Assembly (NCBI GenBank): GCA_963790805.1
Contig: CAWBPL010000002.1
Coordinates: forward strand, 128,696 to 192,695
Direction of reading: 5' to 3'
Length of the DNA: 64,000 nt
From: Candidatus Gottesmanbacteria bacterium
GTDB taxonomy: Bacteria > Patescibacteriota > Microgenomatia > UBA10105 > UBA927
Shown: in pieces, positions 3,983 to 41,029 of the stretch
How positions within the stretch are numbered: the stretch's first letter is position 1
Layout of the letters: the number at the start of each line of letters is the position of its first letter
Notes under the pieces: generated by a model
What the model was told of the DNA's origin: nothing
The model's database searches: none
Seen by the model: only the letters and a program-made list of their open reading frames with translations
Translations under genes and position numbers: made by a program

Positions 3983-4620
3983 TTCCCCTCCGATACGACG
4001 GTAACTTTTGTGTCTACCACTTTCACCGCGGTATTGTCATCTATTGTATAGAACGAGTTTTGGGTCTCTTTTGCAAGTTTTTCAAGATAATCGATTCGTA
4101 CTTTCGGAAACCACTCGGAATTAAGGTGCGGCCTGATTTCAAAGTCAACGAAACCCAAACCTTCAACACATTCAAATCTTCCGGTTTTTTCGTAATACAA
4201 AATTTGTTCACTGGACAATGAAACCTGCTTGGCCGTTACCATACTGCCGGCGCTTATTCCCATATAGACTTTTGTTTTCAAAAGTTTAGGTAATAAGGGG
4301 ATTAGTCCGGATTTATGCATCCATGTCAATAAATAATCCGAATTGCCGCCGCCAAAAACAAGAACATCAGCCGCCTCAAAACTCGGAAGCCAGTATTCTT
4401 TACCCACTGCGGAAATATCAATAATGTCAAACGTCTCAAATCCGAGCTTAAGAAGATTGTACATATCATTGACGACGAATTTTTTATCACCGCGCTCTAC
4501 ATTCGCAGCAGTCGGAATAAATGTGACAGCGGATTTCTCAAATGGTTTTCCCAATAACTCCAAAAGTGCGCTTGCAAGTGATTTATTAGTTATGCCAGAA
4601 GACGTCAAAAGGAGTCTCAT
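3964..4620 (-). CDS. Peptidase S51 (dipeptidase E-like) / class I glutamine-amidotransferase-like fold
   Basis: Contains MRLLLTSSG, VLVFGGGNSDYLL and GISAGSMV (nucleophile Ser), which are typical of the S51 family. Confidence 0.8.
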   Translation of the reverse strand: MRLLLTSSGITNKSLASALLELLGKPFEKSAVTFIPTAANVERGDKKFVVNDMYNLLKLGFETFDIIDISAVGKEYWLPSFEAADVLVFGGGNSDYLLTWMHKSGLIPLLPKLLKTKVYMGISAGSMVTAKQVSLSSEQILYYEKTGRFECVEGLGFVDFEIRPHLNSEWFPKVRIDYLEKLAKETQNSFYTIDDNTAVKVVDTKVTVVSEGKWKKFN

Positions 4621-4671
4621 TGGTTTGAAGTATAATACGTTTCCGTGCTCGGGGCAAAAATTTGGATGGCG

Positions 4672-4896
4672 CTACTCAGCTAACGAAAGTTCCGCTCTGG
4701 CATGACGTGCTATAACAACCTTTACACCCATGCATAGGTCGGTTGAAGACACAGAAGTCGCGTTAATATCGCTTTCTAAATCCCCCTCAATACTGGCGCG
4801 AAGTGCATCGCCCTGCTGATAGCCTTCACCATGCCCTAACCGTACAGTCCCAGAGGCTTGCCAATCAATATACGGGGTATATGCTAATATCTCCAT
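4672..4896 (-). CDS. Hypothetical small protein (74 aa)
   Basis: This is the only ORF in a ~420-nt gap. I recognise no motif, so coding status is uncertain. Confidence 0.25.
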   Translation of the reverse strand: MEILAYTPYIDWQASGTVRLGHGEGYQQGDALRASIEGDLESDINATSVSSTDLCMGVKVVIARHARAELSLAE

Positions 4897-5043
4897 ACCT
4901 ATGGTATCTCAATAACTATTGATCTAACTTCGTTATCATTATGGCATCGAGGTTGTCGCATTGCAAATATTATAAACTCTCAATCGGATTCAAAAGGAAT
5001 TAATTTTTTGTTTTTTCATACGGCCATTATACCGCCGGACAAT

Positions 5044-5694
5044 TCAGGGAGAATTTTTGAACGTAAATTTGATATACGATCCTCCATTGTCATACCACGT
5101 GTGACCGGAGAGAATTTCAAATTCGTACGAAACGTTATTTTTTAATCCCGTGATATCCGTCGTATGCGACTGAATGCTTTGCTGATTATCCGAAACATAT
5201 ACCCTCGCGGTTTGATCTTGAAACGGTGCCTCGCCTAATTTCACCACTCCAATCTCTTTGGCATCCGTACGCCATGTAACTCGAACAGAATCAACGGAAA
5301 ATCGCTGTACGGCGACCACGCGGGGTACCTCCTCAGGACCGGCATTCACGGATTGACGCGATCCGTGTTGTACATATGACAGTATCGACGGAATACCGCC
5401 GACTATAATTGCAAGAAATAATACCGATATGATATTACTCACGTTCTTCACTTTGTTTACGACTATAAAACTGAACACAACGAGAAAGAGAATTGCGGAC
5501 AGCACATATGGAACATAGGGTAAATACGGTATGAATGCCGAATCAAATGCTGATGGTTGAGAAATGACCGTTTCTTCATGAGCTTGAGGCGCATTATGCG
5601 CACTTAACTGATCGATAGCGACAAAATAATTTACTGCGGCAAGTGCTTGAGGTTGGGCAGTTGAAGACGGACCGGTTATTGTACCAAATGACAT
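5044..5694 (-). CDS. Membrane-anchored protein with a C-terminal fibronectin-III-like beta domain
   Basis: Two TM stretches (YVLSAILFLVVFSFIVV and ISVLFLAIIVGGIPSIL) are followed by VRVTWRTDAKEIGVVKLGE...ITGLKNNVSYEFEI, which has an FN3 / purple-acid-phosphatase-N-like pattern. Confidence 0.5.
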   Translation of the reverse strand: MSFGTITGPSSTAQPQALAAVNYFVAIDQLSAHNAPQAHEETVISQPSAFDSAFIPYLPYVPYVLSAILFLVVFSFIVVNKVKNVSNIISVLFLAIIVGGIPSILSYVQHGSRQSVNAGPEEVPRVVAVQRFSVDSVRVTWRTDAKEIGVVKLGEAPFQDQTARVYVSDNQQSIQSHTTDITGLKNNVSYEFEILSGHTWYDNGGSYIKFTFKNSP

Positions 5695-5700
5695 ATACGT

Positions 5701-6675
5701 TTAATTCGTAAAATCCTGCGTCACCATAATCCCGAAGCTGTCTGTAGAAATAATTCCTATACCAATTTGGTGAAACTCGGGATCAAGAATATTTTTCTTG
5801 TGCTCTGGGCTGTTCATAAGACCGGTATGTGCCTGTTCAACTGTGGGTGCGTACGCGAGATTTTCTCCTGCGGCCGTAAAGGAAATGCCTGCAGCCGTCA
5901 GCCGGTCTCCCGGTCCCTTGCCCTCAGGAGTAATGTGAGAAAAATACCTTCGGAGAAACATATCACTGCTGTGATCACGGGCTTCTGTAGTAAGTGCGTC
6001 AGTTGCTGTTACCGGCTGCACTCCGGCGGCAATCCGTTCGGCATTGACCATGTTCACCATCGTTCGCTCATCCACAACATCAACTTTTAATTCGGATGCT
6101 TTCGGCGCTACGTCCAATTTGATGGTCTCGGTGGATCCGGGATCAATCGTGATAAACTTGGTTGCCGCCTGACCTGCCTGATCGATGACGGAAGATATCG
6201 GCCCTCCGTACTGACGGGCCGCATCAACAATAATCCTGCCTATGGTTGACTGCTGGATATCCGTTTTCACCGTCCCCCTAAACGGCAGTGCTAAAGCAAC
6301 GAGAAGAAGCAGTGCAGCAATAACGATTCCGTTAAGTATTGATACAATGGCACCCAACCAGTTTGTATATTTGGAATGGACGACGTTATCCGGTAACCGC
6401 GAAATTCCAAGAAGCAGTAATTGAGAAATAAATAAATGCGTCATAAAAGCAACACCGACATAGGCAATAACCGAACTCCAAGTAGAGGCTATACCAAATT
6501 TGTTTACAAGAAATGCCGAAACCATGCCGTTGGATACGATCGCAAGCCATAACGCCAGAGCAAACGCAAAAAAACTGGTCGCCAAATAGATAAGTCCCTC
6601 TTCCCACCCTTGATAGGTTTCGTATAAAAGAAAAATGATTATGACATAGTCAACCCAATTTAAATGTATCGGCAT
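5701..6675 (-). CDS. CvpA-like membrane domain fused to a CAP/SCP (YkwD-like) domain
   Basis: The N-terminal region has 4 TM segments and starts in CvpA style (NWVDYVIIIFLLYETYQGWEEG). The C-terminal region reads NAERIAAGV...ARDHSSDM...GENLAY...GLMNSPEHKKNILDPEFHQIGIGI, which is a CAP domain. The ORF track begins at a GTG at 6699; I prefer the ATG at 6675. Confidence 0.75.
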   Translation of the reverse strand: MPIHLNWVDYVIIIFLLYETYQGWEEGLIYLATSFFAFALALWLAIVSNGMVSAFLVNKFGIASTWSSVIAYVGVAFMTHLFISQLLLLGISRLPDNVVHSKYTNWLGAIVSILNGIVIAALLLLVALALPFRGTVKTDIQQSTIGRIIVDAARQYGGPISSVIDQAGQAATKFITIDPGSTETIKLDVAPKASELKVDVVDERTMVNMVNAERIAAGVQPVTATDALTTEARDHSSDMFLRRYFSHITPEGKGPGDRLTAAGISFTAAGENLAYAPTVEQAHTGLMNSPEHKKNILDPEFHQIGIGIISTDSFGIMVTQDFTN

Positions 6676-8789: not shown

Positions 8790-9857
8790 ATGGCAGAAAT
8801 AAAGTTTGACCCTACAATGAATAGTATTGTAGGTTTTGATATTATTAATTCTTCTCCAGACGCAAAGGTGGCAGGTTATAGACGATTTCAACAGGCTTTA
8901 CCAGAATTATTAGATCAACCTCTTCCCACATCCGCATTATTATTTCGTATTCACGATTTGATTACACCGGATGTTACGTTAGAAAATTTGCCAGAAAATA
9001 TTAAAAACGATATGGCAATTAGTTTAATGACATTAGATCGGCCTGATGCAGATCACGTTGGAGATGTTGCTCATCAAGTATTCAACAGACTTTCCCATCA
9101 AAAGCCCTATGACACAAAAGCTCCGTTATTATTTGGTGAAGCAAAGAAACAAATAGCATCAGAGTTACAACTATCTACAAAAATATCATTAGCTCCCGTC
9201 CTTAAAGGTGGTTTAAGAACTTTTGGTGCAAGAGAAATTAATGGGTATCCGCCTGAGCCAGTAGTATATGCAAGCCACACTTTAGTCATGGGCGGCGAGG
9301 CGCAAATGTTAGCACTGCAATTTGGACAACCAGGTATGATTTACCCGGATTCTTATTATGGTTTATCAACTGGTTTGAACGAAGTATATACAAAACTGTG
9401 CGATAAGTATGATTCAATACAGCCAGCTTCTACGCAATTATCAGATATATTTTTTCGAGAAGCTTATTTTCAAGTTCTTGGAACAAGGCTGCTACATCCG
9501 TTTTGGGATGGTAACGGAAGGGCTTTTACTGGTCAACTATTTGTTTCCTTATCAAAACAAGGAATTACAGGTGTTGACCTTCAAAAACTTCAAGAAACAT
9601 CAATTGCATTAGGATATGTAAGTGATCGCATGGTTAAACAGGTGTTAAAAAGTGCAAATTTAAGTTTAGTAAGTGATTTACATGGCATACCGGGGACGTT
9701 ACTCATGTGGTTAAATCCTCGTGTACGGGCAGATTATATGAAACGTCTTAAGGCTGAATTGGAGCGCGCAATTGATATAAGCAATCTCCCTGATAACGAG
9801 TATTTTGAAATTGTGGAATCGGGGAAAAAAGAATTAGAGGAGAGCTTTAAAAATTGA
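8790..9857 (+). CDS. Fic-domain protein with a non-canonical motif
   Basis: Contains HPFWDGNGRAFT, against the canonical HxFx(D/E)GNGRxxR; the last Arg is replaced by Thr. The gene is visibly more AT-rich than its flanks. Confidence 0.8.
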   Translation: MAEIKFDPTMNSIVGFDIINSSPDAKVAGYRRFQQALPELLDQPLPTSALLFRIHDLITPDVTLENLPENIKNDMAISLMTLDRPDADHVGDVAHQVFNRLSHQKPYDTKAPLLFGEAKKQIASELQLSTKISLAPVLKGGLRTFGAREINGYPPEPVVYASHTLVMGGEAQMLALQFGQPGMIYPDSYYGLSTGLNEVYTKLCDKYDSIQPASTQLSDIFFREAYFQVLGTRLLHPFWDGNGRAFTGQLFVSLSKQGITGVDLQKLQETSIALGYVSDRMVKQVLKSANLSLVSDLHGIPGTLLMWLNPRVRADYMKRLKAELERAIDISNLPDNEYFEIVESGKKELEESFKN

Positions 9858-10043
9858 AGAATAGTTTTAAAAAAATTAATTGCAGGCTGAATATAAAAAC
9901 GAAAATTGCTCACATTTTAATTGAAGTCACTGTACACCCTCAATAAAAATGTTTCGAGCCAAAGCGCAAGCCGCACACCCTTGCTATTGTAATTTATCCC
10001 AGTGTACAATTTCTATAGATATCAATTTTGTAAGGAGGAATAT

Positions 10044-10502
10044 ATGAACGTACTGCTTGTCTATGCAACCAATTCAGGAACGACAATGACCACGGCGCAA
10101 ACGGTAAATGATAAGCTGACTGGTAAGGGCCATCAGGTCACGATGAAAGAAGCGCGTGACACGACGCCTGTTGATTTTGACACTCCGCAAGCTATCGTCA
10201 TCGGATCGCCGAGCTGGGATTTTGAGGGCAATGAAGGTATGCCGCACGAAGATTGGCTGCCGCTTATGGAAAAACTTAAGACGAAAACGCTGGAAAACAA
10301 ACCGTTTGCCGTGTTTGGTCTTGGGGATTCATCGTATAAACATTTTTGCGGAGCAGTCGATCATCTTGAGGAAATGGTAAAAACGATGAAAGGGAAACTT
10401 CTCGTTCCTTCTCTTCGCATCGACAAGTTTTACTCCGACCAGACGGGAAACATGGATAAAATCAACGAATGGGCGGACAGCTTGATCGCGGCACTGGGAT
10501 AA
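10044..10502 (+). CDS. Short-chain flavodoxin
   Basis: The sequence MNVLLVYATNSGTTMTTA carries the FMN phosphate-binding loop T/S-x-T-G-x-T, followed by FAVFGLGDSSY. An AAGGAGG SD lies 5 nt upstream of the ATG at 10044. Confidence 0.85.
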   Translation: MNVLLVYATNSGTTMTTAQTVNDKLTGKGHQVTMKEARDTTPVDFDTPQAIVIGSPSWDFEGNEGMPHEDWLPLMEKLKTKTLENKPFAVFGLGDSSYKHFCGAVDHLEEMVKTMKGKLLVPSLRIDKFYSDQTGNMDKINEWADSLIAALG

Positions 10503-10514
10503 CACATTCAGCGT

Positions 10515-12200
10515 ATGTATTACAAAATTACGTTCGTTAAGCTCGACGTTTCGGCTGATGAATGGCTTCATTGCTTCCGCACGATACTCGAAGTCGATCG
10601 GTCCTTCCGCATCCATATCCTCTACGGCGGCAAAAAAGTTGCCTTTATCATGGAAAGCCAGAAAAAACTCGACGTCCTCAATAGCCGCCTCACGCCTCTC
10701 TATCTTTCAGAAGACCTAACCGATCAGGAAGAAGAGGCATTAAGTAAGCAAAAATCCGGCTCCGGTAACATGCCGACACTTATCAAATATCCGTTATTTG
10801 AATATTTGGAGCGCAATCACGTAAAAAACAATAACATCTACCGCGTATCGTTCACCATACAGAAATATAATCCGCTTTGGCTCTTCCCTGCAATCCAAAT
10901 CGATTATGAACGGAATGGACAACTTAAGCACGCGTCGGGTATAACACCTTTGCACATCAACGTTTTTCTTGCTTTCAATCTTACTGAGTCAATAAGCGCT
11001 GAAATCGAAAAAGTGAAACCCGTTCTGGCCGCTAACAACACGACGTTTGAGTTGTATCCTTGGGGAATTTTGAAAAATAAAAACGGCGAGAAAAATGAGT
11101 TTTCGATTCGGTCGTATGATTTCTGGCGCCACAGCCTGATCCTCGGGCAAAGCGGCAGCGGTAAAAGCTACCTATTGAAACTCCTGATTGAGGATATTAA
11201 ACGGTATAACGCATCGGATTATTGCATCGTCCTCATCGATCCGCATGCAGCATTGGAACAATTGATACAAACCGACATGGTTAAAACAAAAATCGACTTT
11301 AAAAACACAGCCACGAATCTTTTCGTCAATATCGGTCAGCCGACACTTTCGACTGAACTCACTATCGATCTCTTCTCAACGGTCATCAACGTGCACGAAA
11401 ATCAAAATCTTGAGCGCGTCCTAAAATTCTCCCTCAACGCCTTATACAGCATCAATAAAATGAATGTCACAAATCTCAAAGATCTGTTGACAGACAGCAT
11501 AAAGCGGAAAGAACTCCTGCGGGATGTTACCGATCGTTCGATTTTGCAATTTTTCGACACCGAATACCAACAGCTTTTTACCGGCCAATACGCTACCGCA
11601 GTATTGCCCGTCATTAATATTCTTTCTGAACTGCAATTCATCGGCAATGCGCCGGCGACCATCGATCTTATCCATGCTATGAATACCAATTTTCTGGTAT
11701 CAGTGCCCATCAAACAATCGGAGCTCGGCTCTAATATTACGCGAGTTATCGGCGGCGCGATGATTCAACAGATATTCACGATTATGCAGGCCGGACTGGT
11801 TAAGAAAAAAGTAATTCTGATGATTGATGAAGTATCGATTGTCCAGACACCGTCGCTTACACATATTTTATCCGAGGCCAGAAAATTTAATCTGACGCTA
11901 ATCCTTGCACAACAATATCTCATGCAGGTTTCCGCTCCGATTCTTCAAAGTATGTTCGCCAATATGATCAACTATTTCTGCTTCAAACTTTCCCGCGACG
12001 ATGCGGAAATTGTTGCACGGAATCTGAATTTTGAAATCGACGACTTTTTCCTCACCAATAAAAACGATCCGCGCGAAATGCTTGAGCTGGGGGTCCGAAT
12101 ATTAACGGAATTAAATCCACGAGAAGTTATTGCCCGTGTACTTGCAAAAGATCAGTATTATCCGCCCTTTAAATCAAAAACGGTGAGTGGTACAGTGTAA
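10515..12200 (+). CDS. FtsK/HerA/TraD-superfamily P-loop NTPase (DUF87 / coupling-protein-like), soluble
   Basis: Walker A is ILGQSGSGKSYLL and Walker B is VILMIDEVSIV. An LILAQQYLMQV segment resembles the TraD/VirD4 C-terminal module. The ~200-aa N-terminal domain is unrecognised and I see no TM segments. Confidence 0.7.
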   Translation: MYYKITFVKLDVSADEWLHCFRTILEVDRSFRIHILYGGKKVAFIMESQKKLDVLNSRLTPLYLSEDLTDQEEEALSKQKSGSGNMPTLIKYPLFEYLERNHVKNNNIYRVSFTIQKYNPLWLFPAIQIDYERNGQLKHASGITPLHINVFLAFNLTESISAEIEKVKPVLAANNTTFELYPWGILKNKNGEKNEFSIRSYDFWRHSLILGQSGSGKSYLLKLLIEDIKRYNASDYCIVLIDPHAALEQLIQTDMVKTKIDFKNTATNLFVNIGQPTLSTELTIDLFSTVINVHENQNLERVLKFSLNALYSINKMNVTNLKDLLTDSIKRKELLRDVTDRSILQFFDTEYQQLFTGQYATAVLPVINILSELQFIGNAPATIDLIHAMNTNFLVSVPIKQSELGSNITRVIGGAMIQQIFTIMQAGLVKKKVILMIDEVSIVQTPSLTHILSEARKFNLTLILAQQYLMQVSAPILQSMFANMINYFCFKLSRDDAEIVARNLNFEIDDFFLTNKNDPREMLELGVRILTELNPREVIARVLAKDQYYPPFKSKTVSGTV

Positions 12201-12210
12201 GGAGGAAAAT

Positions 12211-12948
12211 ATGAACAAAGTTTTCGAACAAATTTATACAAAAGTCTGGGAAGAAATTTTTCCGGGAATCAATCCCATAGATCAAGCCGCGTTTAAAAAA
12301 CTCTATTGTAACGATATTCCGCTGCCGCAGGCCTATCCGGCGATTTCCGGAAATATTTCAGTGTATAGCAGTCCGGAATACGGATATAAAAAATTCATCA
12401 CAAAGGAAGAATCCGAAAAACGAATGAATACTGATAATTTTATGGAACCTAAAACCGACATCGCCTCATTTGCGGATGTTCTGAAGCTCATGGAAAAACG
12501 CGCAACGTTCAGAGGCAACAGAGCTCTTAATTCGGATGTAACGGAAGAATCCGACGATATCTATTCATCAAGTTACATTTATAACAGCGCGCACGTCTAC
12601 AGCAGCCAGAAACTCATGTACTGCTTTAACATGAAAACGTCAGAATATTTACTTGCATCCAAAGGAAGCGGCGATTGCTCATTCGGCATACGCGTGATCG
12701 ATTCCGGAAGTATTTCCAATTCTTTCGATGTCGGATGGTCTAGTAAAAGTGCGAACAGCTACTTCAGCTATAGCGTCGTTGATGTACGTGACTGCATGTT
12801 CTGCTTTCACATCATGTCTAAACAGTATTGCATTGCCAATATGCAGTTTTCGCAGGAGGAGTATAAAAAATTGAAGGAAAAAATTCTGAAAGAGTACTTC
12901 GACCAACTGACAAAACCGGACGCTTTCGTGTCAATAAATCAGCTGTAA
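12211..12948 (+). CDS. Hypothetical protein with a Ser/Cys-rich region of ~6-residue periodicity (beta-helix-like)
   Basis: The AAGGAGG SD overlaps the ATPase stop codon (gtgTAAGGAGGaaaatATG). Hexad phasing is visible: IYSSSY/IYNSAH/VYSSQK/LMYCFN/MKTSEY/.../VVDVRD/CMFCFH/IMSKQY. Confidence 0.6.
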   Translation: MNKVFEQIYTKVWEEIFPGINPIDQAAFKKLYCNDIPLPQAYPAISGNISVYSSPEYGYKKFITKEESEKRMNTDNFMEPKTDIASFADVLKLMEKRATFRGNRALNSDVTEESDDIYSSSYIYNSAHVYSSQKLMYCFNMKTSEYLLASKGSGDCSFGIRVIDSGSISNSFDVGWSSKSANSYFSYSVVDVRDCMFCFHIMSKQYCIANMQFSQEEYKKLKEKILKEYFDQLTKPDAFVSINQL

Positions 12949-12954
12949 CGAAAT

Positions 12955-13431
12955 TTACCACTTAAAATGCGCGAAGGCTCTGTTGGCTTCGGCCATACGG
13001 TGAACAGTATCACGTCGTTTAATCGCTTCGCCCTGACCTTTGGCGGCTTCCATAAGTTCGACCGCTAATTTTTCTCCGAATGATTTAAATTCTTTATTGC
13101 TTCGTTTGCTGGCAAACTGGATGATCCATCGCATGGCAAGGGCTACCCTTCGGTCACCGCGTACTTCAGTGGGCACCTGATACGAAGCGCCGCCAACTCT
13201 GCGGGCTTTTACTTCCATTTTGGGGCCCACGGTGTTAATGGCGGTTTCAAATACTTTAATCGGATCCTCGCCTTTGGCCTTAATTGCATCAAGTGCGCCG
13301 TAGACCTGCCGTTCAGCCACCCGTTTTTTGCCGCTTTTCATGACGCGGTTAATAAATCGCGTCAAAAGCCGGTTTCCGTATATAGGATCGGCTGGCAACA
13401 TTGGTTTAAAAACTCGTTTTGATCTGCTCAT
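12955..13431 (-). CDS. rpsG: 30S ribosomal protein S7
   Basis: Full-length match to S7 (PDPIYGN, VKARRVGGASYQVP, NRAFAHFKW). Confidence 0.97.
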   Translation of the reverse strand: MSRSKRVFKPMLPADPIYGNRLLTRFINRVMKSGKKRVAERQVYGALDAIKAKGEDPIKVFETAINTVGPKMEVKARRVGGASYQVPTEVRGDRRVALAMRWIIQFASKRSNKEFKSFGEKLAVELMEAAKGQGEAIKRRDTVHRMAEANRAFAHFKW

Positions 13432-23026: not shown

Positions 23027-23986
23027 ATGGATATTATTTATCATCCCGTCGTTTTGGAACATCTGACTGTGAATCACCCTGAAAATAACCAGAGGATTCT
23101 CTGCCTCGGGGATTTGCCGGTCACCGAACTTCCGTATTCTACCGATCCGCTTACTCTTGTCCATCCGCAACAGTATATTAATGAAGTGAAACGGGCGTGT
23201 GAAACAAGTACGCCGCTTGATGCCGATACACAAACGTCACCGAAATCATGGGATGCGGCGCTCTACGCAGTGGCGGCAACTATCAGGGCGTCGGAAACGA
23301 ACGGATTCGCCCTTGTGCGACCTCCGGGCCATCATGCACACGCATCCTATGGCCACGGATTTTGTTTATTTAATAACATAGCGATAGCAACGCAAAAATT
23401 CGTTCGCGACGGCAAACGCGTTTTTATTTTTGATTTCGACGGACATCTGGGAGACGGTACGGAAGAAATTTTTTACAATACCGACAAGGTTCTCTACTTT
23501 TCGCTTCACCAGTTTCCCGCATTCCCCCAGAAGGGATCGGTTGATGAAATTGGAGCCGGCGCAGGAACCGGATTCACCATCAATGTGCCGCTTCCGCCCA
23601 AATCCGCGGATGACATATATCTTCAGGCCATCCAAACACTCCTTCCGGTAGCAAAACAATTCAAACCGGATGTCGTTGCCGTATCGGCGGGATTCGACGG
23701 ACACAAACTTGATCCCCTTCTCGATCTGGAACTCAGCGTTAATACGTATTATGAAATAGGAACATTGCTTCGGAATAATTTTCCCGAGGTATTTGCGACG
23801 CTGGAAGGCGGATATAATACAGACATACTGCCCAGATGTTTTTATAATTTTCTTGACGGGATAAACGGCAACCCGAAACGCTTTTTGGAAGATACAACGG
23901 AGTCAACGATACTGACGATGGAAGCATTTGAACTGGATTTGGAAAAACTCGTTCACAATCTTTCGCCGTACTGGAAGTTATCGTAA
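23027..23986 (+). CDS. Zn-dependent histone-deacetylase-family protein (AcuC / acetylpolyamine amidohydrolase-like)
   Basis: Contains RPPGHHA, GFCLFNN, DFDGHLGDGT and the EGGYN motif. Confidence 0.9.
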   Translation: MDIIYHPVVLEHLTVNHPENNQRILCLGDLPVTELPYSTDPLTLVHPQQYINEVKRACETSTPLDADTQTSPKSWDAALYAVAATIRASETNGFALVRPPGHHAHASYGHGFCLFNNIAIATQKFVRDGKRVFIFDFDGHLGDGTEEIFYNTDKVLYFSLHQFPAFPQKGSVDEIGAGAGTGFTINVPLPPKSADDIYLQAIQTLLPVAKQFKPDVVAVSAGFDGHKLDPLLDLELSVNTYYEIGTLLRNNFPEVFATLEGGYNTDILPRCFYNFLDGINGNPKRFLEDTTESTILTMEAFELDLEKLVHNLSPYWKLS

Positions 23987-23993
23987 ACAATCT

Positions 23994-26672
23994 ATGATTA
24001 AAAACGGTCTGAAAACGCTCTTTAATCCGAAAACGATCGCAGTCATCGGTGCGTCAAACAAAAAAGAACACACCGGCTATGCGATCATGAAAAATCTTAT
24101 CTACGACGGGTTCAGCGGCCGCGTGTATCCGGTTAACCCGAATGCGGAAAGTGTTTTCGGAAGCAAATCATACAAAGCGGTCGGAGATATTCCGGAACCG
24201 GTCGATCTGGCCATTATCGCCATCCCCGCCGCCCAAGTTCCTGAGCTTCTGGAAGCATGCGGAAAAGCGAAAATACCAAGCGCCATAATTATTTCGTCCG
24301 GCTTCATGGAATCGGGTGCCGGCGGCGAATCGCTCTTTCATAAAATTTCTGAAATAGCTGCAGCCTACGATATAACGATATTGGGCCCGAACTGTCTCGG
24401 ATTTATCCGCCCCTCAAAATCATTAAATGCGAGCTTTGCCGATAAAATGGCCCGTCCCGGCGGAATTGCATTCATATCCCAAAGCGGCGCGCTGGGCAGT
24501 GCGGTCCTCGACTGGTCCATCAAACAGCACGTGGGATTCAGCTATTTCGTTTCCATCGGAGAAACACTGAATGTCGGATTCCATGACCTTATCGATTACT
24601 TCGGAAACGATCCGGAAACGACGAGCATACTTTTGTACATGGAATCGCTGGATTCCGCAAGAAAATTTTTAAGCGCTGCTCGGGCATATGCGCGGACCAA
24701 ACCGATCGTGGTACTTAAAGCCGGCAAAAGCCGAGAGGGGGCACGCGCAGCGCATTCCCATACAGGAAGCTTAGCCGGAAACGATCAGGTGTTTGATGCC
24801 GCGTTTGCCAGAGCCGGCATGCTTCGCGTCAATACGATTGGCGAACTGTTTGATTGCGCAGAGGTTCTTGCCACCCAGCGGCATCCATCAGGAAACAGGC
24901 TTGCGATCGTCACTAATGCGGGCGGCCCCGGTGTCATTGCCACGGATTATCTTATGGGTAAAGGCGGCGAATTGTCTTCGCTTTCAGCGGATACCATGAG
25001 TGCTCTTGATTCGTTCCTGCCCTCAGCATGGAGCAAAGGAAATCCCGTTGACGTGCTGGGTGATGCTGACGCGCTCCGGTATAAAAAAGCCGTTGAGACG
25101 GTGCTTCTGGACCCGTCTGTCGACGCGGTATTAACGCTTCTGACCCCGCAGGCAATGACCCATCCGTTATCAGTTGCCGAAGAACTCATAGCCATTTCCC
25201 AGAAAAATCAAAAAACCATTCTTACGTCTTTCTTGGGAGAAGACGACGTTGCCGACGCGCGGAACCTTTTGATGAAAGCGCACATCCCGACCTATGAAAC
25301 GCCTGAGGAAGCGATAAAAAGTTTTATCAATCTATACACGTATGCCAAAAATCTGGAACTTCTCTACGAAACGCCGGCAACAACCCCCCACGCCTTTACG
25401 CCGAAAACTGAGGAAAATAAAAAGATCATCGAGGGCGCGGTGAAAAAGGAGCGGTTCGTACTTACGGAACAGGAAGCCAAACAGATGCTTGCAAATTACG
25501 ATATGCCCATCCCGCAATCATTCGTTTCCATTTCCCCCGATGACGCCGCACAAAAAGCAAAATCAGCAGGGTTTCCGGTTGCCATGAAAATCGTCTCGCC
25601 GGATATTCTTCACAAAATCGACGTCGGCGGCGTAAAGCTCAACATCAAATCTGAAGAGGAAGCAAAAGCCGCCTATACGGACATTGTCAATTCAAGTAAA
25701 ACCCACGTACCGGATGCGGAAATCATCGGCGTACTTGTGGAGACTATGTATTCGAAAAAATACGAGCTTTTTATCGGTTGCAAAAAAGATCCGATTTTCG
25801 GCCCCGCTATAGTCTTTGGTCTGGGAGGCATAGCCGTTGAATTATTTAATGACATTGCCGTAGGCCTTCCGCCACTTAACATGGCGCTTGCGATGCGGAT
25901 GATCATGAGCACTAAAGTATATAAACTCCTTTCCGGCTTTCGCGGAACGACGAGCGTTGATATCAGCTCAATTCAGTTTTTACTCTATAAATTTTCCTAT
26001 CTCGTTATGGATTTTCCGGAAATTAAGGAAATTGACATCAATCCGTTCGGCGTTGATGAAAAGGGAGGCGTGGTCCTTGACGCAAAAATAATTCTCGATG
26101 AATCAATTATCCAGACTCCCGTCAAACCGTATAGTCATCTGGTTATCTCTCCGTATCCTTCGAAATATGTGAAAGAGGTGAAACTCGCATCCGGTAAAGA
26201 GGTAACGCTCCGGCCGATCCGCCCCGAGGACGAACCGGAGGAAGCCGAGATGTTTACGCACTTTTCGGAAGAGACAGAGCGGCTCCGTTTTTTCACACGG
26301 ATTAAAGATATTACCCATCAGCTTCTGATCCGCTATACGCAGATAGATTACGACCGCGAAATCGCAATCATTGCAGAGGAAAATGAAAATGGGAAAAAAC
26401 ATATGATGGGTGTTGTGCGGCTCATTGCGGATCCCTATGGCGATACTGCTGAATTTGCCATTGTTATTGCCGACCCGTGGCAGCATATGGGCTTGGGAAA
26501 AATTCTTATGGATTATATTCTGGATATCGCAAAAGAGCGGGCCATTAAAAAAATTTACGCATATGTTCTTCCGGATAATAAACAAATGCTGACCATGATG
26601 CAGAAACGGCAATTCACCGTACGCCGGCAGGAAGACAATATGCTTGCAGAATTGGAATTACATTCCGGCTGA
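23994..26672 (+). CDS. Pat/PatZ-like protein: NDP-forming acyl-CoA synthetase-like domains fused to a C-terminal GNAT
   Basis: The N-terminal region has a CoA-binding domain (IAVIGASNK, PVNP) and an ATP-grasp region. The C-terminal GNAT region covers LRPIRPEDE...GVVRLIADP...QHMGLGKILMDYIL. The start was moved to the ATG at 23994; the track begins at 23928 inside the HDAC gene. Confidence 0.85.
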   Translation: MIKNGLKTLFNPKTIAVIGASNKKEHTGYAIMKNLIYDGFSGRVYPVNPNAESVFGSKSYKAVGDIPEPVDLAIIAIPAAQVPELLEACGKAKIPSAIIISSGFMESGAGGESLFHKISEIAAAYDITILGPNCLGFIRPSKSLNASFADKMARPGGIAFISQSGALGSAVLDWSIKQHVGFSYFVSIGETLNVGFHDLIDYFGNDPETTSILLYMESLDSARKFLSAARAYARTKPIVVLKAGKSREGARAAHSHTGSLAGNDQVFDAAFARAGMLRVNTIGELFDCAEVLATQRHPSGNRLAIVTNAGGPGVIATDYLMGKGGELSSLSADTMSALDSFLPSAWSKGNPVDVLGDADALRYKKAVETVLLDPSVDAVLTLLTPQAMTHPLSVAEELIAISQKNQKTILTSFLGEDDVADARNLLMKAHIPTYETPEEAIKSFINLYTYAKNLELLYETPATTPHAFTPKTEENKKIIEGAVKKERFVLTEQEAKQMLANYDMPIPQSFVSISPDDAAQKAKSAGFPVAMKIVSPDILHKIDVGGVKLNIKSEEEAKAAYTDIVNSSKTHVPDAEIIGVLVETMYSKKYELFIGCKKDPIFGPAIVFGLGGIAVELFNDIAVGLPPLNMALAMRMIMSTKVYKLLSGFRGTTSVDISSIQFLLYKFSYLVMDFPEIKEIDINPFGVDEKGGVVLDAKIILDESIIQTPVKPYSHLVISPYPSKYVKEVKLASGKEVTLRPIRPEDEPEEAEMFTHFSEETERLRFFTRIKDITHQLLIRYTQIDYDREIAIIAEENENGKKHMMGVVRLIADPYGDTAEFAIVIADPWQHMGLGKILMDYILDIAKERAIKKIYAYVLPDNKQMLTMMQKRQFTVRRQEDNMLAELELHSG

Positions 26673-31764: not shown

Positions 31765-34041
31765 TTATTGCACCATTAGAGCTTTCGCTAATGAGTCAAA
31801 AATGATTTTGTGTTCATCTCGATATTTATCAATATCACCAATTTTCGAACCTTTGACTTCTTTGGGTTTTTCTAACTCATTACGAATATAACCAGTCAAG
31901 TTGTTATCGTCGGTTATATACAAATATCCACTATCGTATTTATTACCACTTGAATAATCTGATTCGTCCAAAACAAGACTTTGAATTTCTAAACAATTAC
32001 CATCAAATATGCCATTTATTTTAATTTTTGAATCTCCTCCTTGTTTAATATTTAATATATCATTTTCTTTAATAATTTGAATAACATATCGACCTCCTAT
32101 CATTAATTCCCAATATCCAGACCAATCGAATATATGACCGGTAGAAAGTTGCTCAACATAACCTATTTTATATTGACTTAACAAAGAACCTTGGCTACTT
32201 AATTGTTTTTCGCTTTTTTCTTCATCATCTACGGAGGTTTGTACAGATCCTAAAGTTTTATCTACTCGTGTATCATAACCTGATTTATTATCTCTTATAA
32301 TATTTCTTAGCATATCTAATGCCTTATCTTTCAAACCAATTTGAAGATATTGTGATGCTATATTGCTTCCCGCTAAAGTATTGCCTAGAGAAAATGATTT
32401 CTTGTACATCTCCATGCACTTAATGGGCATATTTTCCCGTTCATAAAGCACACCAAGATTGTTAGTTATATTTGAAATATCTTTGCTATTTTCTAATGCA
32501 ATTAAATAATGGTATAAGGATGAGGGCCTATCGTTTATTTCTGAATATTCATAGGCACAAGTAAATCTAACATCACTATCAAATGGATTAATGTTCAAGT
32601 ATGCCTCTAAAAATAATAAACCTTTGTTTTTGCTACCTGTCTCTAAATAGTGATTTCCAAGTATTCTAAAAAGATTTGTTTTTTTCTCAATATCTGTAGT
32701 AATTCGGATGAGCGCCTTAATTCTTTCATCAAAATCATGTTTTAGATTACATTTACAATGTGCGCAAACATCAGAGAAATGTAACAGATAAGACAAAATG
32801 ATTTCCGGATCGTCTTCTAAGGATAGCGCTTTCTCTATATATTCATGGGAAATCCTATGCGATTTATTGTTATAAAAATATTTGGATAAGTAATATGCCG
32901 CAAAAGAATATTTAGTATTTTTTGTCTCTATCGATTTAAGATCTTTTGGGTCATTAACATATTTATCAACACAGTCTACAGAGTTTTGTACCTTTTCTTC
33001 AGTATATTTGGCCTTAATTTCTTCGATAATAGTACGACCTGCTTTTTCCTTCTTTTCCCTATTTAGATCAATCAATCCCCACTCTAAAATTTTTAAACTA
33101 ACCATAAGATCTTCTTTAAACCTGTTGATAAAATTCGCCTTATCCTCACCAATTAACAGGTTATAAATTCTTGGACCCGGACTCCTTTTCGTAAGATATC
33201 TTTTTGAATTATCACTTATCTTATCTAAGATTAAATTTGTTTCTTCAATAATATCATCAACGTTCGAAAAACGGAGTTTCGCGTCATCTACTATCATTTT
33301 GCTAAGTAAACTTTCTTGTATTAGTGGTAAATATGGATTCGAACCCTCGTACAATGATGCTAGATCACCTATTTCCTCACGAAAAATTTTTACTTTACCA
33401 GTGAGGATAAAGAGCAATACTTTTCCTAGCGAATATATATCCGATTTTTCATTTGCCTGAGATGGGTTTTTATATTGTTCGGGAGCTATAAAATGCAAAG
33501 GGCCAACAATTTCATCCTCTTCTGTAATTTCACCATCACCCGCTTGTTCTTTTAGCAAACCTATACCAAAATCTGTAATTAAGATACTTTTTTGTGTGGG
33601 GTAAAGGAGAATATTGTCGGGTTTCAAATCTCTATGTATAACGCCAGCCTTATGAGCAGAATTTACGCCTATTAATATCTCTTTAAATAATCGAAGTGCG
33701 GCTTCAACATCGTTAAAATAAAAATCATTATCCCTTAAACTCCCATGAGGGGAATAATCCATAACATAAAATACGCTTGTGTCTTTATTATCTAATACTT
33801 CTTGTAAGTTATCGTCATATATCCTTACTACATTCCTATTGCCGTTGAGTTTTTTAATTATGCTTATTTCTGTTTGAATTCTCTTTAGTTTCTTCTTTTG
33901 AAACTTTTTAAGCGAAAATCGTTTTAAAGCGTATATTTGATCATCTTCAGAATTTCTAACTTTTAATACGGTTGCTTGACCTCCTGATTTAATTTTTTCT
34001 AAAACTATCCATTTTTTATGATAACTTTTCTTTTGATTCAT
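31765..34041 (-). CDS. Ser/Thr protein kinase with a TPR-like middle region and an unassigned beta-rich C-terminal domain
   Basis: Contains the complete Hanks motif set: SGGQATV loop, YALKRF Lys, HRDLKPDNILL, DFGIG and FIAPEQ. The middle region is helical-repeat (TPR-like). The last ~130 aa are unrecognised. The gene is strongly AT-rich relative to its neighbours. Confidence 0.85.
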   Translation of the reverse strand: MNQKKSYHKKWIVLEKIKSGGQATVLKVRNSEDDQIYALKRFSLKKFQKKKLKRIQTEISIIKKLNGNRNVVRIYDDNLQEVLDNKDTSVFYVMDYSPHGSLRDNDFYFNDVEAALRLFKEILIGVNSAHKAGVIHRDLKPDNILLYPTQKSILITDFGIGLLKEQAGDGEITEEDEIVGPLHFIAPEQYKNPSQANEKSDIYSLGKVLLFILTGKVKIFREEIGDLASLYEGSNPYLPLIQESLLSKMIVDDAKLRFSNVDDIIEETNLILDKISDNSKRYLTKRSPGPRIYNLLIGEDKANFINRFKEDLMVSLKILEWGLIDLNREKKEKAGRTIIEEIKAKYTEEKVQNSVDCVDKYVNDPKDLKSIETKNTKYSFAAYYLSKYFYNNKSHRISHEYIEKALSLEDDPEIILSYLLHFSDVCAHCKCNLKHDFDERIKALIRITTDIEKKTNLFRILGNHYLETGSKNKGLLFLEAYLNINPFDSDVRFTCAYEYSEINDRPSSLYHYLIALENSKDISNITNNLGVLYERENMPIKCMEMYKKSFSLGNTLAGSNIASQYLQIGLKDKALDMLRNIIRDNKSGYDTRVDKTLGSVQTSVDDEEKSEKQLSSQGSLLSQYKIGYVEQLSTGHIFDWSGYWELMIGGRYVIQIIKENDILNIKQGGDSKIKINGIFDGNCLEIQSLVLDESDYSSGNKYDSGYLYITDDNNLTGYIRNELEKPKEVKGSKIGDIDKYRDEHKIIFDSLAKALMVQ

Positions 34042-38608: not shown

Positions 38609-41029
38609 TTATTGAGAAACTGCAGTTGTCACGGATATGTTGTTTTTATTTATCGGCAAACGGGCATGCGAGGGACTCAGGCGGAATGTCACGGTAACAC
38701 CCGCAATGCCCGTAACGGTTCGCAGGTACGTTTCCACATCTTTAATACTTTTTCCGGCAATATTGTTTCGGATCGACGCCGTATCGATAGTCGGCAGTGC
38801 AACGGCACTCATATTCGCAGTCGCCGTAATTTTGCCGTTTTTCAACACCCGAACATTTGAAAGCGTTATTGTCGTTTTACTCTCATTGATGACGTATCCC
38901 GCCGGCACCTTGTCAGCCGCTAAGGTCGAAAGAAGTGCCTGAATATCACTGTCGCTATATCCCACGCCCGTAATGGAAATCGTTAACTTTCCCTGAAGTT
39001 GTGTCGCTTCCTGATCGATTTCCTGACCGAAAACTTTTTCCGTCACCGTGGTTTTTATCGTGTCGTCAATGAGTTTTATGTTGCCGCCGACTGATCCTGA
39101 TAAATCCTGTTTCGCATTTCCGACTAATTCCTGCGACTCGTTGGTAACAAACGAATCATAATCCGCCCGCGTCACGACAGTCACTTGCTTACTCGTTCCG
39201 CCGGCAAACGGCTGCGCATTTCTTCCGACCGCCGTGTCAGAGCTGACATTTTTTATCGTGAATTCACTGCTTGCGGGAATATTGCTTTGCGGGCCGATGG
39301 CTACAGCCGTAGCTGCGACGTCCGCCGTCGTAAATGTGGTATTGATACCGGTCGGACTTTCGACCGACGTTGCCGACGCGACGCTAACGTCATTATCTAA
39401 TGTATATTGCAAACCGCCGGTTGAAAGAACAGTCCCTTTGCTTAACGTGAGCGGCGAATCCGACGATTTGTTATAAATCGTTATGGTTCCTTTTGCCGGA
39501 TCGCCTATGTCTTTTTTACCATTCACCGGCACTGTTTTTTCACCGGTAACCAATTTTTGCTGAGTTCTCCCCGGAATTATATTATTCTGGGCGTCAACCG
39601 TCGTCGCTGACGGATCGATGGTAATCGCCTGAGACAGATCAACCGGTCTGGGTATTTCCAGTATCGTGAGGACAGCATGGGGAAGCGTCCAGTAAAAAAT
39701 ACCAGCGATGACACACAATACAACTACGCCAAGAATAATTGGCACCATCGGCGATCGCCCTGCCATGAATCGGGATGAAAACATGCGAAAAATTCTCAAC
39801 ATTCTTCCGAAGTCTATCCGAGGTAGTGCGACAGGTGTTTTTCGGGGTTCTCCCGTTTCTTTTTCGCGCTCTTCTTCTCCCTGTTCCTGTCTCACTTGTT
39901 CCATCTGGTTTTCTTCTTCCAAAACGTCAACGTCTTTTTTAAACCCAAGCGATTCCGCATCCACCATCACGACGTTAGCATCCTGTGTTGCCTCAGACTC
40001 TGTCGACAAATCTTCCCGAACAGCTTCCTGCGCTTCAATGACTTCTTCTGCCATATCCTTTTCTTCATCAAGCGGTGATTCCTCTTTCGCATCTTCTGTA
40101 ATGGCGTCTTCTATCGCTTCATCGTTTTCCTCCTCCGGCGCAATTTCTTCTTCCACCGGCAGCTCAACGACTGGATTGTGATCCGGCGTCACAAAGGGCT
40201 CAGACGCTTCTGTTTGAACCGGCGCCTGCGCGGCGGCTTCGGCGGGAGCTTCCTCTATAGATTCGACCGCAGCCCCCAGTTCGCTTGCTCCGGCGAGCGA
40301 TATCGCATCAATGACGAATGTATTTGACATGACTTCAATTTTCGGAAAATGCAGAAAATTTACTTTGTTGGTCCATGAATGGCGAAGTAAATCGCTTTTT
40401 ATTCCTTCGAGACTTGAGACATCCGACCCGTACAGAAGAACGCGGGCCGGCAACACTTCAAGATCCGTAAAACTTTTGAGTCCTGATTCAACGCTTGCGG
40501 CGATATCCTCGTTTTTCTCAATCTCCCGAAAACCAGCAAGCGTACCGATTTTATATATGGATATGGCAATCGAGGAATTATTCATCCCCAGCAATATGAC
40601 GCTCGGAGGAACACCCTCTTCTCTTTTCAGCTTAAAAATAATCGCCTGATTGAGAGGAACAAAGCCGATGGGATTTAATTCCAATATTTTTGTAAGTTCT
40701 CTGATCTCCTTTTGAATTTCCTTTTGTATCTCTCCGGTCGGAGTCAGATAGATAGAAGGAAGGCCGAGAATCACTTTTGTTTCATCCGTAATTTTGGTTC
40801 GTTCTTCGAGTAACCCGATGAGGCGGTCGATGGCATCACTTTTACTCTGCCATGAATCCTCCACGTTCCCTGATGATTCCGAAGCGAGCAATTGAAGCCG
40901 GCCGCCCTCGCCGCCCATAGACCAGAATGAAACTGCGATACTATGAATATCAATATAGAGCGAAATGTAGACCTCGGGACGTTCTTTGCGCTTGTTAAAG
41001 AATGTATCGATGAAATCAGGCATCTTCAT
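38609..41029 (-). CDS. 806-aa fusion: N-terminal actin/FtsA/PilM-like domain, acidic linker, one TM segment, extracytoplasmic baseplate-J-like beta-rich domain (tentative)
   Basis: The N-terminal ~260 aa has an ASKHA-like pattern (ISLYIDIHSIAVSFW, VILGLPS, GFVPLNQA). An E/A-rich linker spans aa ~265-400. The TM segment is MVPIILGVVVLCVIAGIFYW. The C-terminal segment AKGTITIYNKSSDSPLTLSKGTVLSTGGLQYTL...AIGPQSNIPA resembles baseplate J/gp47-family proteins. There is no LPXTG motif. Confidence 0.55.
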   Translation of the reverse strand: MKMPDFIDTFFNKRKERPEVYISLYIDIHSIAVSFWSMGGEGGRLQLLASESSGNVEDSWQSKSDAIDRLIGLLEERTKITDETKVILGLPSIYLTPTGEIQKEIQKEIRELTKILELNPIGFVPLNQAIIFKLKREEGVPPSVILLGMNNSSIAISIYKIGTLAGFREIEKNEDIAASVESGLKSFTDLEVLPARVLLYGSDVSSLEGIKSDLLRHSWTNKVNFLHFPKIEVMSNTFVIDAISLAGASELGAAVESIEEAPAEAAAQAPVQTEASEPFVTPDHNPVVELPVEEEIAPEEENDEAIEDAITEDAKEESPLDEEKDMAEEVIEAQEAVREDLSTESEATQDANVVMVDAESLGFKKDVDVLEEENQMEQVRQEQGEEEREKETGEPRKTPVALPRIDFGRMLRIFRMFSSRFMAGRSPMVPIILGVVVLCVIAGIFYWTLPHAVLTILEIPRPVDLSQAITIDPSATTVDAQNNIIPGRTQQKLVTGEKTVPVNGKKDIGDPAKGTITIYNKSSDSPLTLSKGTVLSTGGLQYTLDNDVSVASATSVESPTGINTTFTTADVAATAVAIGPQSNIPASSEFTIKNVSSDTAVGRNAQPFAGGTSKQVTVVTRADYDSFVTNESQELVGNAKQDLSGSVGGNIKLIDDTIKTTVTEKVFGQEIDQEATQLQGKLTISITGVGYSDSDIQALLSTLAADKVPAGYVINESKTTITLSNVRVLKNGKITATANMSAVALPTIDTASIRNNIAGKSIKDVETYLRTVTGIAGVTVTFRLSPSHARLPINKNNISVTTAVSQ

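Follow-up and report, generated by a model that had tools for sequence, protein, structure and literature searches.

A predicted soluble HerA/FtsK/VirD4-superfamily ATPase and a Ser/Cys hexad-repeat protein form a conserved two-gene operon in Candidate Phyla Radiation bacteria, DPANN archaea and Bacilli-labelled genomes

Ring ATPases that act with a dedicated partner protein are already known, and HerA-NurA, HerA-Sir2 and Cagbeta-CagZ are the possible parallels to the pair of proteins considered here. In the Patescibacteria (Candidate Phyla Radiation [CPR]), 5,713 homologues of VirD4-type type IV coupling proteins (T4CPs) have been counted in 2,918 of 3,035 genomes (~96%), with 148 of them near virB4, and the role of the orphan homologues was left open (PMC12102498). 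The type IV secretion system (T4SS) of S. epibionticum is essential and its cluster has no recognisable coupling protein; the T4CP-like SEML1_0142 and SEML1_0293 are listed in the supplementary tables, and SEML1_0293 was scored as non-essential (PMC10633639). CPR bacteria and DPANN archaea account for much of microbial diversity, and the function of most of their lineage-specific genes is not known. Here we analysed a stretch of 64,000 nucleotides from Candidatus Gottesmanbacteria (assembly GCA_963790805.1, contig CAWBPL010000002.1, positions 128,696 to 192,695), the whole of which is called the window below. In the window, the gene of a 561-residue ATPase (10515..12200, + strand; ATG 10515, TAA 12200) is followed by the gene of a 245-residue protein, the partner (12211..12948, + strand; ATG 12211, TAA 12948), which no library model matches. 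The closest named relatives of both proteins also come from Candidatus Gottesmanbacteria (CPR/Patescibacteria). The partner family is new, and the phyletic pattern of the pair is unusual.

The ATPase and partner genes form a conserved, translationally coupled and co-evolving two-gene operon. A single strict peptide pattern, run against one genome per GTDB species, yielded 390 confirmed relatives of the partner, and adjacency was counted in 80 loci fetched from 80 GTDB species genomes, four of which begin at a contig end. The ATPase gene lies directly upstream of the partner gene on the same strand in all 76 loci with upstream sequence, and the metagenomic contexts of close and distant homologues always show the ATPase gene and then the partner gene, with differing flanks. 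The distance from the ATPase stop to the partner start ranges from -8 to +15 nt in 80 of 83 loci (median 2 nt; 27 overlaps). In the window, the spacer measures 10 nt (12201-12210), and the AGGAGG Shine-Dalgarno (SD) sequence of the partner gene (12200..12205, + strand) shares the last base of the ATPase stop codon. These data bear out a sequence-only reading of this stretch, made before the analysis, which had described the two genes as translationally coupled and possibly a stand-alone, undescribed module: the unit comprises two genes that stay adjacent across genomes, and we found no description of the pair in the sources searched, namely the literature on Patescibacteria or CPR/DPANN with DUF87, HerA and ATPases. 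Pairwise identities of the ATPase and those of the partner are strongly correlated (r = 0.92; Mantel 0/999). The ATPases fall into five clades, comprising the window/Microgenomates, Levyi-/Daviesbacteria, Saccharibacteria/Nomurabacteria, Micrarchaeota, and metagenome-assembled genomes (MAGs) labelled Bacilli, while the partners form three groups at the threshold used, the window clade, the Micrarchaeota, and the remaining three clades together. The window and Micrarchaeota clades are therefore separate groups for both proteins. Clustering of the neighbours in 95 loci revealed no third gene common across clades. At the testable loci, this soluble branch of the VirD4-like orphan ATPases is never alone and is locked to an uncatalogued partner family.

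Judged from its sequence and its predicted structure, the ATPase is a divergent, soluble and catalytically intact member of the HerA/FtsK/VirD4 superfamily. It matches PF01935 (DUF87/HerA; 38.8 bits, cutoff 23.2) and PF10412 (TrwB_AAD_bind; 22.4 bits, cutoff 20.5, aa 205-480), with FtsK (PF01580) reaching only E = 0.015 around the P-loop. The Walker A motif GQSGSGKS (aa 211-218; 11145..11168, + strand) and the Walker B strand (aa 432-438 in the model) that ends in D438-E439 (11814..11831, + strand) were located by translation and alignment. Among at least 196 homologues, an alignment of 114 revealed that G211, G214, G216 and K217 of Walker A and D438 and E439 of Walker B are invariant; the sequence-only reading had already named both motifs. 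R456 is likewise invariant and could be an arginine finger. The AlphaFold2 (AF2) monomer model, computed with the alignment of 114 homologues, has a mean predicted local distance difference test score (pLDDT) of 90.5. An N-terminal alpha/beta domain (aa 1-200; 10515..11114, + strand) is followed by a RecA-like core, into which an all-alpha domain is inserted (aa ~276-391; 11340..11687, + strand) that resembles the TrwB all-alpha domain (AAD) by the model, by PF10412 and by the TrwB TM-scores. A search of the PDB with Foldseek matched the model to HerA (4d2i, 8ziq, 8wld and 9x1m), DndH-C (7es4), VirB4 (4ag5), TrwB (1gl6 and 1gl7) and Cagbeta (8dol), all at probability 1.00 and 10-16% identity, with the best TM-scores for TrwB (TMt 0.61-0.66). 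In the comparison of the ATPase profile with PDB sequences, matches were limited to the neighbourhood of the P-loop.

Two further features of the ATPase had been proposed and stand in part. The TraD-like C-terminal module (PF12696) is weak in this protein (E = 0.084) and clearer in its relatives. The N-terminal domain, predicted with 8 strands and 5 helices (block-mean pLDDT 74-96), has no Pfam match, including none to the HAS-barrel, and in this sense is unrecognised; the full-length model does align with HerA structures over 517-543 columns, and only these long alignments cover the domain, with a poor fit (root mean square deviation of 12-15 Å, TM 0.37-0.46). No transmembrane segment was found, in agreement with the earlier prediction: the maximal 19-residue Kyte-Doolittle mean is 1.47 at aa 411, in a buried helix, the other hydrophobic maxima of the ATPase are likewise buried helices containing D/E, and those of its homologues also contain D/E. 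Another candidate identity, that of the chromosomal FtsK, was also considered. The window has a separate gene (45154-47346) for a complete FtsK, with alpha, motor and gamma domains; the ATPase is therefore not the chromosome translocase, and this candidate was rejected.

Analysis of the partner revealed a repeat region of ~17 hexads of the form [S/C]-x-x-hydrophobic-x-x (aa 107-212; 12529..12846, + strand), supported by column frequencies, spectrum and alignments. Ser/Cys reaches a frequency of 0.81-1.0 at each sixth alignment column, a hydrophobic residue follows three positions after each Ser/Cys column, and the spectral peak lies at 6.0-6.25 residues; the periodicity noticed earlier in the single sequence is thus real and conserved family-wide. 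The last turns, DCMFCFH..SKQYCIANMQF...EY, are the signature of the family. The most economical reading of the repeats, taken from this pattern, is a narrow beta-solenoid. The AF2 model (predicted TM-score 0.78) is confident for the N-terminal ~100 residues and the C-terminal helix. The N-terminal alpha/beta domain (aa 1-100; 12211..12510, + strand) has a pLDDT of 83-94 and contains H3-16, H25-32, E40-44, E50-53, H65-74 and H87-95, while the C-terminal helix (aa 215-232; 12853..12906, + strand) has a pLDDT of ~88-90 and carries the nearly invariant Y218. Residues C195 and C207 are replaced in the archaeal members, suggesting that the partner cysteines behave as small core residues. The conserved cysteines had been considered as a metal site, a candidate rejected on account of these substitutions.

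The partner had been described as outside known families, and this description held throughout. No match was found in Pfam, NCBIfam, PADLOC or PHROGs, in the PDB by sequence or profile, or by Foldseek in the PDB or BFVD. Among 68 diverse members of the family, no Pfam model matched consistently even at E <= 10, and none of the Hexapep/beta-helix models matched at that level. No nuclease, NADase or pore-forming domain was recognisable with Pfam, NCBIfam or PADLOC, and the partner has no signal or transmembrane segment. Weak matches to phrog_15341, a phage family whose function is not known, were seen in the repeat region of divergent members (P0192, aa 393-482; the L019 partner, aa 108-208; E ~1.4e-3 to 1.8e-3) and may reflect a related phage repeat or chance.

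The partner gene varies in copy number and domain number. In the Nomurabacteria loci L045 (4992-6402) and L078 (4983-6387), two tandem partner genes follow a single ATPase gene, an intermediate between the single gene and the two-domain fusion of archaea, where many proteins of ~525 aa carry two tandem partner domains. A metagenome scan with these two-domain proteins also revealed operon-like archaeal arrays, in which genes for one and for two domains stand together and a locus can hold as many as 11-12 partner domains. The ATPase gene found at 19 of 80 such loci encodes a full-length homologue (E ~1e-85 to 1e-92) and lies at or near the array end, often convergently. Partner domains within one array are 28-34% identical (median), so the expansion is either old or fast-evolving. 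These fusions and duplications point to a partner that is active as a dimer or larger oligomer. Regulatory genes accompany several of these variants. In the 30 loci from MAGs labelled Bacilli, a regulator with AraC-type HTH_18 and GyrI-like/Cass2 domains always lies directly upstream on the same strand as the pair (for example, L091 5224-6018 and L093 5278-6093), which hints at ligand-controlled expression in this clade. Genes of HTH_10 (bat-type, archaeal) proteins lie within or directly upstream of three of the arrays examined (L118 2437-3336, L121 4007-4723 and L134 8901-9635). The ATPase of L118 (6564-9251, - strand) has 895 aa, including a C-terminal extension of ~330 aa without a Pfam match, and is adjoined by a GNAT acetyltransferase gene; a GNAT gene also follows SEML1_0293.

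To describe the distribution of the pair, we searched 1.84 billion representatives with a hidden Markov model of the partner and obtained 1,964 clusters (50% identity) at E <= 1e-3; a third homologue search with a broad alignment added only ~13 new sequences. The pair was found across many CPR classes, and gut MAGs with the label Bacilli or Tenericutes (Ca. Onthousia, Coprovivens and Onthocola) carry it as well; a closed metagenome-assembled chromosome of 1.49 Mb (OW818670.1, locus L079) groups with these MAGs. It is also present in DPANN archaea, including Micrarchaeota; at L059, it lies on a Micrarchaeia contig of 1.03 Mb between the genes of fibrillarin and deoxyhypusine synthase. The archaeal array contigs carry genes for RtcB with an intein, Lrp/AsnC, PcrB-family and HTH_10 proteins, and we read the PcrB-family gene as a geranylgeranylglyceryl phosphate synthase. 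Several MAGs have record titles such as Gammaproteobacteria, Dehalococcoidales, Binatia or Muribaculaceae (L011, L013, L015, L018, L069 and L070, among others). Their pair proteins cluster with the CPR or Bacilli-labelled clades, and the titles look unreliable.

The flanks of the pair are mostly housekeeping genes and are partly syntenic between CPR phyla. The neighbourhood dnaG/rpoD/pair/polyprenyl synthase is shared by the Microgenomates-type loci L004 and L016 and the Saccharibacteria locus L009, which argues for old vertical inheritance within CPR, and the pair looks vertically inherited there. No relatives of the partner were found in 50,697 phage records or 72,556 plasmids (tblastn), or in a scan of IMG/VR contigs. 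The window and the loci with precomputed Pfam annotation contain no relaxase and no VirB4 or other T4SS gene, and the annotated loci contain no NurA or Mre11/Rad50 neighbours; the absence of relaxase, pilin and nuclease genes noticed around the window pair extends to the annotated flanks. A second DUF87 paralogue within 5 kb of the pair was seen only at L004 and L016. It lies 3 kb downstream of the pair (L016 7978-10685; L004 11675-13782), is preceded by an ORF (open reading frame) of 114-125 aa, and is longer than the pair ATPase (777 aa, ATPase domain from ~aa 376). Its ATPase domain begins at roughly the same residue as those of SEML1_0142 and SEML1_0293, which are likewise longer paralogues (domain from ~aa 360-380) and have no partner-like gene downstream.

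The sequence-only reading had joined the pair with an upstream flavodoxin gene into a three-gene cassette that ends close to rpsG. The geometry was confirmed on the sequence. The short-chain flavodoxin gene (10044..10502, + strand; ATG 10044, TAA 10502) is separated from the ATPase start by a 12-nt spacer, and the partner stop lies 6 nt from that of the convergent rpsG (12955..13431, - strand, identified by translation), which closes a rpoB-rpoC-rpsL-rpsG block. The flavodoxin matches PF00258 (1.7e-22, passing the cutoff) and TIGR01753 (1.1e-26), the latter with 94 bits under the equivalog cutoff of 123. The cassette itself was not borne out. The flavodoxin gene is probably co-transcribed with the pair in the window, but among 174 fetched loci it stands beside the pair only in the closest relative, L011, and it is not found in the annotated metagenomic contexts of close and distant homologues. 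We therefore rejected it as a part of the module and regard it as a lineage-specific neighbour. Flavodoxin, ATPase and rpsG of L011 are 81-87% identical to those of the window (rpsG 86%). At L011, ~1.6 kb of extra DNA (4540-6170) lies between the partner gene and rpsG and contains two overlapping opposite-strand ORFs, an ORF of 187 aa and a 20-aa remnant (4600-4659) that duplicates the rpsG C-terminus. Its sequence suggests an insertion into the junction of partner gene and rpsG, which is intact in the window. As stated earlier, neither fusA nor tuf follows rpsG in the adjoining sequence, which is irrelevant to the module. A scan of 9700-13100 for promoters and terminators gave no more sites than in shuffled sequence.

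Other features of the window were also recorded. Immediately upstream of the flavodoxin gene lies an ORF of 355 aa (8790-9857, + strand) without a Pfam family, and an ORF of 806 aa (38609-41029, - strand) likewise has none. At 23928-26672 (+ strand), a 914-aa ADP-forming acyl-CoA synthetase (CoA-binding, Succ_CoA_lig and ATP-grasp_5) carries a C-terminal GNAT fusion, a domain order that we read as a Pat-like protein acetyltransferase architecture. Between 31000 and 34100, the G+C content falls to 0.30-0.38, compared with 0.39-0.52 in the other 1-kb windows. This segment coincides with an ORF of 758 aa (31765-34041, - strand) comprising an N-terminal Ser/Thr kinase (PF00069, 3.7e-35) and a long unannotated tail, and may be foreign or fast-evolving.

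For the function of the pair, we favour, at a probability of roughly 0.5, a cytoplasmic ring-ATPase/solenoid pair that constitutes a chromosomal module with a cellular, non-conjugative role and that differs from the usual mobile defence cassette. Translational coupling would cause the ATPase and the partner to be made together, most likely as one cytoplasmic complex. In this complex, the soluble P-loop ATPase would work as a hexameric ring, and the partner would combine its N-terminal alpha/beta domain, a narrow Ser/Cys-laddered solenoid of ~17 hexads and its C-terminal helix, possibly as a dimer. The solenoid partner could be an adaptor or regulator with which the ATP-driven ring acts, or the substrate on which the ring acts; alternatively, the partner might be an effector, as in HerA-Sir2, or a track.

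Several points weigh against this proposal. We infer the hexameric ring by analogy with structural relatives, and the ATPase model is that of a monomer; the physical ATPase-partner complex, the dimer, the solenoid fold and the nature of the substrate are likewise matters that we infer. In the AF2 model, the repeat region has a pLDDT of ~58 with short strands every ~12 residues, and because of this low value the solenoid fold is deduced from the periodicity; of the beta-helix proposed earlier, the periodicity stands and the fold stays a prediction. The partner has no catalytic motif or known binding domain that we could find. The ATPase gene stands beside 19 of 80 array loci, many of which are on short contigs; arrays with as many as 12 diverged domains are more readily explained by many substrates or a polymer than by a 1:1 regulator. 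The AraC/GyrI-like and HTH_10 regulators beside the pair suggest conditional rather than housekeeping use. In addition, the annotation tables of the transposon sequencing (Tn-seq) study of S. epibionticum, the one Saccharibacterium with such data, contain the longer ATPase paralogues only and no ATPase/partner pair, and the module is therefore not universal in CPR.

In our ranking, the ring-ATPase/solenoid complex is followed by orphan T4SS coupling, then by an anti-phage role, and then by a motor-filament system. As an orphan type IV coupling protein, the ATPase would be the VirD4-like component that is missing from the Patescibacteria T4SS encoded elsewhere, with the partner as recruitment factor, chaperone or secreted substrate. 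Such a role is consistent with the PF10412 match, which passes the cutoff, with TrwB as the source of the best TM-scores, and with the published count of VirD4-type homologues, which are present in 2,918 of 3,035 Patescibacteria genomes and in most cases lie far from virB4 (PMC12102498); it would also supply what the essential T4SS cluster of S. epibionticum lacks in recognisable form (PMC10633639). Cagbeta-CagZ (8dol) is an earlier case of a T4CP with a small partner, and the archaeal paralogue arrays could be multiple substrates. However, the ATPase has no N-terminal membrane anchor of the kind typical of canonical T4CPs, the partner has neither signal nor transmembrane segment, and no VirB4, relaxase or other T4SS gene occurs in any annotated flank. 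In S. epibionticum, the T4SS is essential but the T4CP-like genes are non-essential, and these genes belong to a different, longer paralogue type. Furthermore, the pair is also present in Micrarchaeota and Bacilli-labelled MAGs, where a partner T4SS would be hypothetical. We consider orphan coupling unlikely, though the likeliest of the alternatives. In a HerA-type anti-phage or anti-invader pair, foreign DNA would be sensed or translocated by the ring, with the solenoid protein as an effector of a new type; such a pair appears improbable. Sir2-HerA and DUF4297-HerA are among the top structural matches, and PADLOC models match the ATPase, but the HerA models cover only aa ~203-265 (the Walker A region), mad8 (6.6e-11) covers the core at aa 205-495, and no PADLOC model matches the partner. 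The dedicated regulators and the diversification of archaeal paralogues recall conflict systems; AbiEii and a transposase lie near the pair at L008, and an integrase adjoins it at L071. Elsewhere the flanks are mostly housekeeping genes with partial synteny between CPR phyla, the partner relatives are absent from the plasmids, phages and viral contigs searched, and the partner has no recognisable nuclease, NADase or pore-forming domain. The presence of one deep ATPase clade per major taxon, with the window and Micrarchaeota resolved by both proteins, fits old inheritance and not frequent transfer. The conjugation and anti-phage parallels drawn in the sequence-only reading were not borne out.

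The polymer model that the arrays bring to mind would have the solenoids stack into a cytoplasmic rod, in a bactofilin-like manner, with the ring assembling, disassembling or travelling along it. A polymer would be in keeping with the tandem fusions, the gene duplications and the arrays, which reach 12 diverged domains and have an ATPase gene next to them at 19 of 80 loci; this arrangement resembles the pilin or archaellin arrays found beside an assembly ATPase. The narrow core of small residues implied by the S/C ladder is also compatible with stacking of solenoids. Against this, the model is inferential throughout, no bactofilin or other polymer was matched by Foldseek or Pfam, AF2 models the repeats with low confidence, and HerA/FtsK-family rings are known to translocate nucleic acid and not protein rods. 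We regard a motor-filament system as the least probable of the readings considered. A further, speculative reading, to which we give little weight, is a hitherto unrecognised cellular machine common to the ultra-small symbiotic lineages of both domains (CPR and DPANN) and to some Bacilli-labelled MAGs. In it, a HerA/FtsK-type ring motor would run on stackable solenoids or use them as adaptors, and would build or drive a cytoplasmic rod or handle host-acquired nucleic acid. If true, the nucleic-acid-handling reading would bear on the uptake and processing of host DNA or RNA in CPR and DPANN. A 2026 preprint reports that a Patescibacterium feeds on host RNA by an uptake mechanism that is unresolved, which is given as context only and is no evidence for the pair.

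The pair spans both prokaryotic domains: bona fide archaeal chromosomes carry it, and so do Bacilli-labelled MAGs from the gut. Its confinement to the lineages recorded here hints at a role linked to a dependent way of life. It offers a concrete, testable two-protein system, with the partner as a new repeat-protein family for structural study.

Comparison of the partner with known solenoids revealed a limited likeness. As in left-handed beta-helix (LbH) hexapeptide proteins and solenoids with 12-residue coils, the partner has a period of 6 with small and hydrophobic residues at fixed positions, but the spacing between S/C and hydrophobic residues is i, i+3 and not the i, i+4 of LbH proteins, and PF00132 does not match. 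Insect antifreeze proteins, which are solenoids of 12 residues per coil, provide a Ser/Cys-rich comparison; since the partner is cytoplasmic, structural disulfides are unlikely in it. FtsK/SpoIIIE and EccC/EssC of the type VII secretion system (T7SS) belong to the same superfamily as the ATPase, with weak Pfam/NCBIfam matches around the P-loop. Unlike them, the window ATPase has a single ATPase domain and neither FtsK alpha/gamma domains nor a transmembrane region. The T7SS, in which an ATPase stands beside arrays of small substrate genes, recalls the archaeal partner arrays, although the partner is not a WXG100-type helical hairpin.

Comparison with the T4CPs (TrwB/VirD4/TraD and Cagbeta) and the HerA-partner complexes (HerA-NurA, Sir2-HerA/Nezha and DUF4297-HerA) indicated that the pair shares features with both. 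In contrast to T4CPs, the window ATPase has no transmembrane anchor and has an extra N-terminal alpha/beta domain of ~200 aa, no relaxase, VirB4 or T4SS genes lie near the pair, partner relatives are absent from plasmids, and the partner is unrelated to CagZ, TraM and TrwA. The window ATPase shares with them an ATPase core with an all-alpha domain, the PF10412 match and a TMt of up to 0.66 to TrwB, and its family probably contributes to the published VirD4-type matches in Patescibacteria. The pair differs from the HerA-partner complexes in the low identity of the ATPase (10-15%), in sequence matches limited to the Walker A region, and in the TrwB-AAD-like helical insertion. Moreover, the partner has no NurA or other nuclease, Sir2 or DUF4297 domain, Mre11/Rad50 neighbours are absent, and in CPR, DPANN and Bacilli-labelled MAGs the pair lies in a chromosomal housekeeping context. 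As in these complexes, PF01935 passes its cutoff, the full-length model aligns with HerA, and a soluble ATPase is accompanied by one dedicated, adjacent gene for a partner that is probably dimeric or oligomeric; among T4CPs, Cagbeta-CagZ is an example of such a ring regulated by a small soluble protein.

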